Positions 4,079-8,265 of a stretch of DNA of 8,265 nucleotides are shown here, one piece after another. Both the position numbers and the translations under genes were made by a program. The stretch comes from a virus (lineage: Duplodnaviria > Heunggongvirae > Uroviricota > Caudoviricetes). Location: the IMG/VR virus record IMGVR_UViG_2690316348_000005; one strand, given 5' to 3'. The notes beneath the pieces are model-generated. The model worked only from the letters and a program-made list of their open reading frames with translations. It had not been told where the DNA came from and ran no database searches. The number at the start of each line of letters is the position of its first letter. The stretch's first letter is position 1.

Positions 4079-4114
4079 TTGATTTTTCCGGAATCTGTGG
4101 TAAATTCGTTATAA
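4079..4114 (+). promoter_or_regulatory. pR'-like late promoter with a likely qut region
   Basis: -35 TTGATT (4079..4084), 16-bp spacer, -10 TAAATT (4101..4106), then ACGATGGG. This closely resembles the lambda pR' -10 and initial transcribed sequence as I recall it. Confidence 0.6.
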
Positions 4115-4154
4115 CGATGGGCGTTTTATGCCTGACGTTAGAAGAGTTTCTACA

Positions 4155-4178
4155 ACCCGCCGCCGAGCGGGTTTTTTA
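4155..4178 (+). terminator. tR'-like intrinsic terminator, about 65 nt downstream of the putative late transcription start
   Basis: Stem CCCGC (4156..4160), loop CGCCGA, stem GCGGG (4167..4171), then TTTTTT (4172..4177). Confidence 0.65.
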
Positions 4179-4297
4179 TGACTGAAATCGCGTCAGTACA
4201 GTAAACGCGCTGGTGGCGGTGAATACCTGTCTTTCAGCTTGCTGGCTTTTTCGACAAGAGTTATTGGTGTGTCACGTTAACCGGAAAAGGAAAAGAC

Positions 4298-5744: not shown

Positions 5745-5820
5745 GGCCCTTTAGCTCAGTGGTGAGAGCGAGCGACTCATAATCGCCAGGTCGCTGGTTC
5801 AAATCCAGCAAGGGCCACCA
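5745..5820 (+). tRNA. ileZ: tRNA-Ile2-like, anticodon CAT (presumed lysidine-modified, reads AUA)
   Basis: Manual cloverleaf: 7-bp acceptor GGCCCTT/AAGGGCC, D-arm with GG, anticodon loop CTCATAA, T-loop TTCAAAT, encoded CCA. Overall resemblance to E. coli ileX. The Ile-versus-Met call rests on that resemblance. Confidence 0.8.
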
Positions 5821-5827
5821 TCACATA

Positions 5828-5904
5828 CCGCCATTAGCTCATCAGGAAAGAGCGCCAGCCTTCGAAGCTGGCTGCGCGGGGTTCAAGTCCCCGATGGCGG
5901 TCCA
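5828..5904 (+). tRNA. argN: tRNA-Arg, anticodon TCG
   Basis: Manual cloverleaf: acceptor CCGCCAT/ATGGCGG (C1-G72), anticodon stem CCAGC/GCTGG, loop CTTCGAA, T-loop TTCAAGT, encoded CCA. The gene symbol is by position in a 933W-like ileZ-argN-argO cluster and is tentative. Confidence 0.75.
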
Positions 5905-5917
5905 TTATCTGCATCAT

Positions 5918-5994
5918 GCGTTGTTAGCTCAGCCGGACAGAGCAATTGCCTTCTAAGCAATCGGTCACTGGTTCGAATCCAGTACAGCGCGCCA
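5918..5994 (+). tRNA. argO: tRNA-Arg, anticodon TCT (reads AGA)
   Basis: Manual cloverleaf: acceptor GCGTTGT/ACAGCGC with a U4-G69 wobble, anticodon stem ATTGC/GCAAT, loop CTTCTAA, T-loop TTCGAAT, encoded CCA. The gene symbol is by position and is tentative. Confidence 0.8.
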
Positions 5995-6128
5995 TATTCA
6001 TTCTTCCAGATTCCTTCCGGCAGAGCCTTATACTGAAATATACCTGGCTCAGGATATTGTTGAAAATATTTTATGTTTGTCAAAAATAAAAGTTCTGTTA
6101 AGTATTGATTGAGTGTTTGTTATACGGT

Positions 6129-6458
6129 CTAATGGTTTTTTCAGCATTAAATATTTATCATTCATATGGTGTGGGTAGAGTGAATATTGATGAGGCGTCG
6201 GGGTGTTTCATCCTTAGGCAGCGTATTGATATAGTCAATGCAGCACGAGCAAAGGCCTTCAGCCGTTTGACAGTTTTGTTCTGTACTCCTGATCGTCTTT
6301 CGGGAAGAGACGTTATTATTCTGAATAGTGATGCTATACAGAGGGTTTGCGATGAGTTCATGGTTGCTAATTCAGAATTATTTGCTCTTGTTCAGGAGTA
6401 CAACAGAATAGCCAGGACCTGTGGTATGGATGAACTTCGGATTACTCATCTGGGGTAG
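6129..6458 (+). CDS. Hypothetical protein (about 109 aa from ATG 6129; 117 aa from TTG 6105) in the segment inserted after the first tRNA cluster
   Basis: ORF beginning in an AT-rich stretch with a candidate promoter TTGATT (6105..6110), 17-bp spacer, TCTAAT. No clear Shine-Dalgarno and no recognised family. Confidence 0.3.
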   Translation, partial: LMVFSALNIYHSYGVGRVNIDEASGCFILRQRIDIVNAARAKAFSRLTVLFCTPDRLSGRDVIILNSDAIQRVCDEFMVANSELFALVQEYNRIARTCGMDELRITHLG

Positions 6459-6650: not shown

Positions 6651-6855
6651 TTTTAAATACTTCACAATTCAGGCGGTTGACTGTTGTCTGGTTTGCGGGG
6701 AGTTTGTTAAAAGAAACTGGCATGGTGAATCCCCCTGTGCGGAGGGGCAATCAGCGAGTAGGTATATGGGATAATCGCGGATTCAGGTGCTGGTACTGAA
6801 TTCACCGGGAGGCACCCGGCACCATGCAATGGCACATAGCGCCACTCTCCAGCCC
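6651..6855 (+). repeat. Direct repeat B, copy 1 (about 205 bp), GC-rich and structured; truncated just before the terminator that ends copy 2
   Basis: Matches 7215..7419, identical over the last ~165 bp with about 6 mismatches in the first ~40 bp. Contains hairpins such as CCCCCTGTGCGGAGGGG. Confidence 0.85.
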
Positions 6856-6928
6856 AAAGTACAGGATTTAGTCAGCCAGAACGGATGATATTGAAGAATT
6901 AATTACGCGTCGTTATTATGCGGCTCCC

Positions 6929-7004
6929 GGCCCTTTAGCTCAGTGGTGAGAGCGAGCGACTCATAATCGCCAGGTCGCTGGTTCAAATCCAGCAAGGGCC
7001 ACCA
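6929..7004 (+). tRNA. ileZ: tRNA-Ile2-like, anticodon CAT, second copy
   Basis: Identical to 5745..5820. Confidence 0.8.
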
Positions 7005-7011
7005 TCACATA

Positions 7012-7088
7012 CCGCCATTAGCTCATCAGGAAAGAGCGCCAGCCTTCGAAGCTGGCTGCGCGGGGTTCAAGTCCCCGATGGCGGTCCA
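7012..7088 (+). tRNA. argN: tRNA-Arg, anticodon TCG, second copy
   Basis: Identical to 5828..5904. Confidence 0.75.
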
Positions 7089-7101
7089 TTATCTGCATCA
7101 T

Positions 7102-7178
7102 GCGTTGTTAGCTCAGCCGGACAGAGCAATTGCCTTCTAAGCAATCGGTCACTGGTTCGAATCCAGTACAACGCGCCA
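7102..7178 (+). tRNA. argO: tRNA-Arg, anticodon TCT, second copy with a Watson-Crick U4-A69 pair
   Basis: Identical to 5918..5994 except G69 to A (position 7171), which converts the U4-G69 wobble into U-A. Confidence 0.8.
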
Positions 7179-7192
7179 CACTTATTTTCCCT

Positions 7193-7218
7193 GGCTCGCT
7201 TTTGCGGGCCTTTTTTTT
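7193..7218 (+). terminator. Intrinsic terminator immediately after the second tRNA cluster
   Basis: Stem GGCTCGC / GCGGGCC (one G-U pair), loop TTTT, followed by TTTTTTTT (7211..7218). There is no equivalent after the first tRNA cluster. Confidence 0.7.
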
Positions 7219-7419
7219 AAATGTCTCACAATTCAGACGGTTGACAGTTGTCTGTTTTGCGGGGAGTTTGTTAAAAGAAACTGGCATGGTGAATCCCCCT
7301 GTGCGGAGGGGCAATCAGCGAGTAGGTATATGGGATAATCGCGGATTCAGGTGCTGGTACTGAATTCACCGGGAGGCACCCGGCACCATGCAATGGCACA
7401 TAGCGCCACTCTCCAGCCC
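7215..7419 (+). repeat. Direct repeat B, copy 2 (about 205 bp)
   Basis: See copy 1. This copy begins with a perfect TTGACA (7242..7247) and is followed by a terminator. Confidence 0.85.
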
Positions 7420-7440
7420 CTCTCCGGAGGGGCTGTTTAT
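7415..7440 (+). terminator. Intrinsic terminator at the boundary between repeat B copy 2 and the AT-rich island
   Basis: Stem AGCCCCTC (7415..7422), loop TCCG, stem GAGGGGCT (7427..7434), followed by GTTTATATTGATTTT. Confidence 0.65.
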
Positions 7441-7469
7441 ATTGATTTTGTCAGATGTGAGTAAACTCC

Positions 7470-7805
7470 TTATGGACTTTGTTGTTTTAGTCCATAAGGA
7501 CATATTTGCAGAGTGCAACGGTTATTAAAGCATTCATTCAATACGTTATCTGTATTTGTAGGGCATTCCTGGCTATTTTTGATTGAATTCCAGAATGTTT
7601 TATTGAATGGTACTACGTTGTAAATGGTTACAGGTAGCACTTTGTTATTGAGCATGATGCCTGTGTGAGTCAGTGTAAATATACTTTCAGGAGGTAAGAA
7701 AGCATCCGATTGATACCAGATTATTAATTTTATTTTACTCCATATGACTGAAAAAGATATTCCGCATGATGGCTGGATAACTGTATCAATCACAATCCAC
7801 TTCAT
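7470..7805 (-). CDS. Hypothetical protein, 111 aa, in the AT-rich island; the only credible minus-strand gene in the window
   Basis: ATG (complement of 7803..7805) preceded on the minus strand by AAGGAAA with 6-nt spacing. Candidate promoter TTTACA-15-TATACT further upstream on the minus strand. The 3' end overlaps a 12-bp perfect hairpin (7467..7500). No family recognised. Confidence 0.4.
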
Positions 7806-8065
7806 TTAGTTTCCTTGTTTATGCCTTGCTGGTGATGTTCTGAAAAGTATAAATGATATTTTTGAATGTAAACCATAGAGCAGAATTATTTTTCTGATGT
7901 TGTTTATTGTTTATTTAAATGCAGGGTGGTTTATATCTCGTCTTGTAGTTTATCCATGCATATCTGCTTGATAATCAGGTTTTTATTTAAGGTATGGTTT
8001 TGTGTTTTTTCTGTATTACATGTCAGGTATTTTAAAGAATTATTTTTCAGATGGTGGAAAGAACC

Positions 8066-8239
8066 ATGGCATTTAAACACTATGATGTTGTCAGGGCGGC
8101 GCCGCCGTCAGATCTTGCGGAAAAGCTGACACATAAACTGAAAGAGGGCTGGCAGCCGTTTGGTAGTCCGGTGGCCATAACCCCTTATACCCTGAGGTGT
8201 ACTGGCAATAGCGGACACTACCATTTGTTCTTTTTTTAA
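8066..8239 (+). CDS. Small hypothetical protein, 57 aa (62 aa from the alternative ATG at 8051); possibly DUF1737-like
   Basis: ORF with a GGTGGA-like ribosome-binding site before ATG 8066. The EGWQPFG motif reminds me of small prophage proteins found upstream of lysis genes, but this is a weak recollection. The last 47 nt of the CDS lie inside the right terminal inverted repeat. Confidence 0.4.
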   Translation: MAFKHYDVVRAAPPSDLAEKLTHKLKEGWQPFGSPVAITPYTLRCTGNSGHYHLFFF

Positions 8240-8265
8240 GCAGCCATCTGATGATATTTTTCCCT
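8193..8265. repeat. Right arm of the 73-bp perfect terminal inverted repeat
   Basis: Reverse complement equals 1..73 exactly. Contains the C-terminal codons and 3' flank of the 8066..8239 ORF. Confidence 0.9.

Follow-up and report, generated by a model that had tools for sequence, protein, structure and literature searches.

The window analysed here, an 8,265-nucleotide stretch of DNA from the Caudoviricetes record IMGVR_UViG_2690316348_000005, raises the question of what is encoded in its AT-rich island at 7441-8050, whose minus-strand open reading frame had been called unrecognisable in a first-pass annotation made from the letters alone. Judged by its gene content, the window covers the early-right and late-control part of a lambdoid prophage. 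A hok/sok type I toxin-antitoxin module (913-1238; Rfam sok, 112 bits; Pfam Hok/gef) comes first, upstream of the block formed by DUF968, rusA and the Q antiterminator, after which follow a short terminator-bearing leader, a DNA methylase and a tRNA triplet. Next come phrog_2873, a TciB-like ORF, a partial STnc100 and a second tRNA triplet, and the window ends with a full copy of the STnc100 sRNA (7255-7444), the gene under study on the opposite strand and a DUF1737 remnant (8051-8239). The island is very likely the iraL cassette, carried by a lambdoid prophage of the same type as the potB prophage of CFT073.

The base composition of the island is deviant, as had been claimed. GC content is 0.321 over 7441-8050 against 0.498 in the remaining window, and the lowest-GC 610-bp window of the whole stretch begins exactly at 7441 (mean 0.491 and standard deviation 0.045 over all 610-bp windows). 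The comparison of codon usage with the flanking genes, which had been proposed as a check, points the same way, with a GC3 of 0.33 for iraL and of 0.47-0.66 for the flanking phage genes.

The iraL coding sequence occupies 7470..7805 on the minus strand and specifies 111 aa, with an ATG start and a TAA stop at 7472-7470. Pairwise dN/dS values between iraL alleles of 0.10-0.28 are indicative of purifying selection, so that this ORF is kept as coding and the minus-strand gene of the first-pass annotation can be upheld. Its product is far from unrecognisable. The protein scores 162 bits on the NCBIfam model NF007393, "anti-adapter protein IraM" (cut-off 121), with residues 1-110 covered, and matches chain A of PDB 8twd (IraM) with E = 6e-31; the NCBI annotation pipeline (PGAP) names the gene in more than 1400 genomes, and all 20 of the protein homologue clusters (20/20) carry the name IraM. 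Our own Pfam-A scans (E <= 0.01 and E <= 10) gave no PmrD/IraM-family match to the protein, whereas precomputed tables list PF11183 for every homologue; the identification of the gene rests on NCBIfam, PDB and the literature.

Two homologues have been distinguished, iraM in K-12, located beside prophage e14, and iraL in uropathogenic CFT073, located on the "potB island", whose products are 58.9% identical (PMC4045071). The window gene is of the second kind. CFT073 IraL (WP_000871291.1; c1429, formerly ycgW; Hryckowian et al. 2014, mBio, PMC4045071) shares 110 of 111 residues with the window protein, and the island DNA is identical to the CFT073 locus at 605 of 610 bases, promoter included, with five differences. 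In the current CFT073 annotation the counterpart is C_RS06710, with c1429 as its old locus tag (PMC12890032). The gene thus falls within the allele group defined by at least 95% CDS identity to CFT073 iraL and at least 96% identity over the promoter/regulatory region, and it agrees with CFT073 in its start site, in its promoter region and in the gene order of the prophage. The differences include a C to T change at -1 of the start site, another C to T change in the 5' UTR and the substitution L74S (L74 in CFT073, S74 in the window), while at the level of the prophage the window adds the DNA methylase and a second tRNA triplet upstream. The iraL gene, its promoter and its mechanism are already known, as they were published in 2014 and the gene is annotated by the NCBI pipeline. 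The locus therefore serves as a calibration case, in which an "unrecognisable" AT-rich reverse-strand phage ORF is a characterised host-regulator gene.

IraM from K-12 (b1160) is a PhoP-dependent RssB anti-adaptor induced by Mg starvation, whose structure is available as PDB 8twd. It belongs to the same family, with a PmrD-like fold, and is identical to the window protein at 65 of 107 aa (61%). IraL differs from it by four extra C-terminal residues, QQSP, and by a 12-bp hairpin. An AlphaFold (AF2) model of the window protein was built from an alignment of 12 family sequences, which are 60-97% identical to that protein; the pLDDT of the model is 80-89 in residues 1-80 and falls below 50 in residues 84-111. 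In Foldseek comparisons, the model superimposes on 8twd_A with a TM of 0.90 and an rmsd of 1.2 A, and on PmrD (PDB 4hn7) with a TM of 0.74. Both routes that had been suggested for the product, remote homology and structure prediction, hence lead to IraM. In the model, the core of IraL (residues 1-78) is a PmrD-like antiparallel beta-barrel with a flanking helix, in line with the PmrD-like fold described in the literature, and a tail rich in cysteines follows. The connector protein PmrD shares this small beta-barrel fold, and both proteins bind the receiver domain of a response regulator. However, PmrD is only 14% identical to IraL and binds the phosphorylated receiver domain of PmrA, with protection from dephosphorylation as the outcome.

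The IraM residues that contact RssB are known from the crystal of the IraM-RssB complex (PMC10844676), and can be followed in the window protein by clusters. [quoted passage not shown] In cluster II, C14, F18 and W30 are identical and T13S and L75I are conservative, and in cluster III, I61, Y62 and P66 are identical while H63N and I64V differ; these four substitutions (T13S, L75I, H63N, I64V) are the contacts to the C-terminal domain or linker that have changed with respect to IraM. [quoted passage not shown] S74, where the rest of the family has leucine, adjoins residue 75, a contact of the RssB C-terminal domain.

The tail of IraL (residues 81-111; 7473-7565, minus strand) contains four cysteines, C81, C92, C97 and C102, which are invariant in 12/12 aligned IraL/IraM proteins and follow the pattern CP-x9/10-C-x4-C-x4-CP, while the remainder of the tail is variable. 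The tail was left out of the construct used for the only crystal structure, that of IraM, and the structure paper called it less conserved and flexible (PMC10844676). These four cysteines, for which no discussion was found in the searchable papers, may form a metal or redox site.

A function in anti-phage defence or anti-defence, with the effect on RpoS being secondary, is extremely unlikely for this gene. It would fit the location in a late-region hot spot for morons, where phages often carry accessory cargo, and PHROGs v4 lists the IraL family as phrog_4407 (E = 3e-72) with "unknown function". However, no PADLOC match was obtained at E <= 0.01, the RssB-contact residues are conserved, and the family is one with a solved RssB complex and genetic evidence of sigma-S stabilisation. 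Of the first-pass reading as a moron, a class said there to encode often defence, anti-defence or virulence functions, the moron part stands, given the gene's own start and its prophage slot; the defence part finds no support, and the known role is RpoS stabilisation.

Regulation of iraL can be approached through the published start site. The 5'-RACE sequence ACATCACCAGCAAGGCATAAACAAGGAAACCA (PMC4045071) matches the minus strand at 7838-7807 in 31 of 32 bases, which places the transcription start at 7838 and gives a leader of 33 nt (7806..7838), as published for CFT073. A Shine-Dalgarno motif, AAGGA, lies at 7816-7812, six bases ahead of the ATG; both the good ribosome-binding site and the plausible promoter that had been noticed beforehand are thereby corroborated. 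The promoter region, whose position is set by the published start, is found at 7839..7938 on the minus strand and corresponds to the -100 fragment used for complementation in CFT073, in a construct that spans -100 to +33 (PMC4045071). As judged from the sequence, the -10 element would be TATACT at 7851-7846 and the -35 element TTTACA at 7872-7867, separated by a 15-nt spacer that is short enough to explain why these hexamers are missing from the output of the consensus scan. The promoter is contained in an intergenic region with 28.6% GC (7806..8050), between the divergent iraL and DUF1737 genes, and this AT-rich region is probably bound by H-NS and may be subject to H-NS-type silencing.

Homology between iraL and K-12 iraM at the DNA level is confined to 7486-7807 (70% identity) and ends at the borders of the CDS, and no homology was found between the iraL promoter region and the K-12 iraM promoter. 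The PhoP-linked promoter of iraM is therefore not common to iraL, which fits the different conditions under which the two genes are expressed. K-12 iraM sits beside e14 and iraL in a lambdoid late region, with unrelated promoters and regulation. Derepression of iraL in a fur mutant has been reported, as has an increase of 1.6 log2 when the temperature is raised from 23 to 37 degrees C (PMC12890032).

That the allele in the window is decaying and no longer functional, as part of a defective prophage, is very unlikely. The neighbouring DUF1737/nanS-p gene is truncated, the tRNA/STnc100 segment is rearranged and duplicated, and S74 lies beside an interface residue, all of which point that way; against it, the ORF, Shine-Dalgarno motif, start site and -10 are all intact, purifying selection acts across alleles, and the same S74 protein recurs in 5 of 82 viral loci.

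[quoted passage not shown] RssB binding, the half-life effect and the start site were published for the allele of CFT073; with a single residue of difference between the two proteins, the window IraL is predicted to be an RssB anti-adaptor that stabilises host sigma-S, with a putative function in lysogenic conversion or fitness. In the lysogen, a sigma-70 promoter belonging to iraL itself (start 7838) would drive leftward transcription of the gene, against the phage late operon. The iraL product would bind the receiver (N-terminal) domain of the adaptor RssB, which would then no longer hand over sigma-S (RpoS) to the ClpXP protease; sigma-S would be stabilised even during exponential growth, and the general stress regulon would be raised. 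Upon induction, Q-antiterminated late transcription from the promoter after Q (4079-4106) might read antisense through iraL and shut it off.

The flanks of the island reveal how the gene is accommodated in the prophage. On the left side, the STnc100/PasD-family prophage sRNA (plus strand; Rfam RF02076, 133.6 bits, gathering score 47) ends with an intrinsic terminator at 7414-7435, in which the terminator scan found a stem followed by a T run; this is the terminator that had been noticed before the island, now recognised as the 3' end of the full STnc100 copy. STnc100 and iraL are convergent and about 25 nt apart, and an Rfam scan of the island at E <= 1 gave no match beyond STnc100. On the right side, the plus-strand DUF1737 ORF (8051..8239, 62 aa; Pfam PF08410, E = 1.5e-15) is an N-terminal remnant of the NanS-p-type esterase gene, which related phages carry ahead of the holin, and the CFT073 copy of the ORF is flagged as incomplete by PGAP. 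Homology to most iraL-bearing prophages ends at about 8195, with 5-8 of 80 loci continuing, so that the DUF1737 ORF finishes in a window-specific tail (8196-8265); position 8195 or thereabouts is a recombination junction inside a shortened nanS-p-type gene.

This arrangement is constant. In all 75 IMG/VR loci with enough flank (75/75), iraL has the 3' part of STnc100 on one side and the start of DUF1737 on the other, and the order Q, tRNAs, STnc100, iraL, DUF1737, holin and lysozyme is common to CFT073, STN0717-11 and phage vB_EcoS-640R1. Stx phages match only both flanks of the island, from which it follows that the island fills the cargo slot of stx and nanS-p. A search for an empty site that would define the borders of the cassette gave no precise junction: phage JLK-2012 shares only 7214-7400 and 8073-8195, with 170 unrelated bases between them.

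The iraL gene is thus a moron. It lies among prophage operon genes (in three annotated records and the 75 viral loci), on the opposite strand inside the late region, with a deviant composition that marks it as foreign and with its own promoter and mapped transcription start. As a candidate for its own terminator, there is a stable stem-loop over the stop codon, which lacks a U tract after it and was passed over by the terminator scan. The morons known from the lambdoid late region between Q and the lysis genes (stx1/stx2, tciAB and nanS-p) occupy the same slot as the island. Unlike these, iraL is read in the direction opposite to the late operon, and its promoter is not pR' but a constitutive-type one of its own; the gene encodes a regulator of host proteolysis rather than a toxin. 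In the searchable papers, no statement was found that puts iraL explicitly in the stx-type slot of the late region, that notes its fixed pairing with STnc100 or that describes an stx-adjacent allele. The additions made here to what was known are small ones: the stx-type slot between STnc100 and the DUF1737 remnant, the 75%-identical allele adjacent to stx2-like genes and the four invariant cysteines of the tail.

Island DNA (at least 90% identity) is present in 1446 of 5426 complete E. coli genomes, and among the matches listed every record annotates the gene as anti-adapter protein IraM. Relatives of IraL are encoded on 278 viral contigs, and a scan of GTDB genomes returned the family only in Escherichia and Shigella records; iraL has been reported to be enriched in UPEC and Shigella. 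An apparent relative with 32% identity (L019) was rejected, as it is a frameshifted locus of the K-12 iraM type. Within the more divergent alleles, an 88%-identical one is located after tciA/tciB, and a 75%-identical IraL-like allele (P0005) lies directly 3' of, and convergent to, stx2-like stxA/stxB. In L005 (3206-5105; also in L006 and L007), this gene is found about 330 bp 3' of stxA/stxB and ahead of nanS-p, with stxA/stxB showing about 89% nucleotide identity to stx2a/2c. The iraL part is absent from all 365 phage records that match the stx part of L005.

The 3' end of iraL overlaps a perfect 12-bp inverted repeat at 7467..7500 (arms 7467-7478 and 7489-7500, 12/12 pairs, 10-nt loop), which confirms the hairpin described in the first-pass annotation. 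By chance, a window should contain 0.006 perfect repeats of this length with a loop of 3-20 nt, and two were observed; of 500 composition-preserving block shuffles, 3 contained any such repeat. In the minus-strand RNA, that is the iraL mRNA, the hairpin folds with -20.4 kcal/mol (z -4.2). Its 5' arm there consists of the invariant C-P-Y-G-L codons, and its 3' arm of S-P-stop plus GGA, so that a terminating ribosome would cover the 3' arm. The hairpin forms the core of an extended imperfect palindrome of roughly 78 nt (7442..7518), in which 7442-7459 pairs with 7501-7518. As plus-strand RNA, the palindrome is more stable than on the mRNA strand (-29.4 kcal/mol, z -6.0), and the four G.U pairs of its outer stem exist only in that strand.

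Two simple descriptions of the hairpin were rejected. It is no dispersed repeat, as it occurs only alongside iraL (1492 places, versus 1608 for the island). Nor is 7467-7500 a canonical intrinsic terminator: 5 of the 12 stem pairs are G-C and the loop has 10 nt, the stem is followed by GUUUACUC in the minus-strand and by CAUAUUUG in the plus-strand orientation, there is no U tract, and the terminator scan is silent on either strand.

Variation was compared across 81 near-identical copies and three diverged alleles. Of the former, 37 are identical to the window across 7435-7525 and two differ in the loop only (T7482C), so the stem is perfect in 39/81. The commonest variant, T7491C (35/81), is synonymous (GGA to GGG) and leaves a G.U pair in minus-strand RNA and a C.A mismatch in plus-strand RNA; five copies combine T7491C with C7468G, by which the pair next to the stem base is lost, and two carry A7500G, which removes the terminal pair. 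Overall, the stem is intact or wobble-only in 76 of the 81. Among the diverged alleles, the 83%-identical L004 keeps 7 of the 12 pairs and L005 keeps 9, with the outer palindrome partly kept in L004 and lost in L005, while IraM-type genes that end four codons earlier (e.g. L008) have only a TATGGA/TCCATA remnant of the stem. No compensatory changes were seen in the three diverged alleles and the 81 near-identical copies, whose diversity is too low for a proper covariation test.

Stable stem-loops at the 3' end of an mRNA usually influence its decay, and the 12-bp stem-loop over the stop codon might, tentatively, mark or protect the 3' end of the iraL mRNA. The strand-specific stability of the palindrome has suggested a different role, as an element acting in STnc100 read-through or in the late transcript, for example in processing or stability. 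This is unlikely: the higher stability of the plus-strand RNA, its exclusive wobble pairs and the largely retained outer stem of L004 speak for it, but T7491C gives a mismatch in the plus-strand pairing and a G.U pair in the minus strand, L005 lacks the outer stem, covariation is absent, and one arm of the outer stem is constrained anyway by iraL codons. It is also possible, if somewhat doubtful, that the hairpin has no function and is a by-product of sequence history, such as quasi-palindrome template-switch correction of an ancestral TATGGA/TCCATA repeat, with the same event having created the IraL-specific QQSP extension. The shorter repeat in the IraM-type alleles would represent the starting point, only 7-9 of the 12 pairs persist in diverged iraL alleles without compensation, and the 5' arm is fixed by its CPYGL codons; yet the stem is strongly non-random and mostly preserved among the near-identical copies, and the usual effect of such 3' structures on decay also argues against a neutral remnant.

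A more elaborate model would combine these elements into a switch, in which the palindrome, the convergent STnc100 and the antisense late transcript keep IraL on in the lysogen and turn it off on induction, by antisense transcription or processing, with C81, C92, C97 and C102 forming a module that senses metal or redox state and thereby adjusts the inhibition of RssB. This combination is decidedly improbable; if true, it would tie sigma-S stabilisation to the state of the prophage.

Further observations concern the region between Q and the island. Directly after Q lies a likely late promoter (4079-4106; TTGATT, 16 nt, TGgTAAATT), and a strong terminator comes next, at 4154-4173. This segment (4079-4180) corresponds in position to the one from which Stx phages produce StxS, a short leader RNA that activates rpoS translation. 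A second AT-rich patch (GC about 0.38-0.41) harbours a 117-aa ORF at 6105-6458, which matches phrog_2873 (unknown function, E = 4e-70) and is intact in CFT073, where it has no PGAP annotation. The STnc100 copies, which belong to a prophage sRNA related to PasD, comprise a partial one at 6691-6842 besides the full one at 7255-7444. The tRNA triplet is duplicated as well (5745-5994 and 6929-7178); ARAGORN calls it Met(CAU)-Arg-Arg, and PGAP names the first tRNA Ile (ileZ-argN-argO type). As CFT073 has one triplet, 6856-7213 can be recognised as an extra segment with STnc100 5' parts on both sides, and it looks like the result of a tandem duplication or of recombination between prophages.
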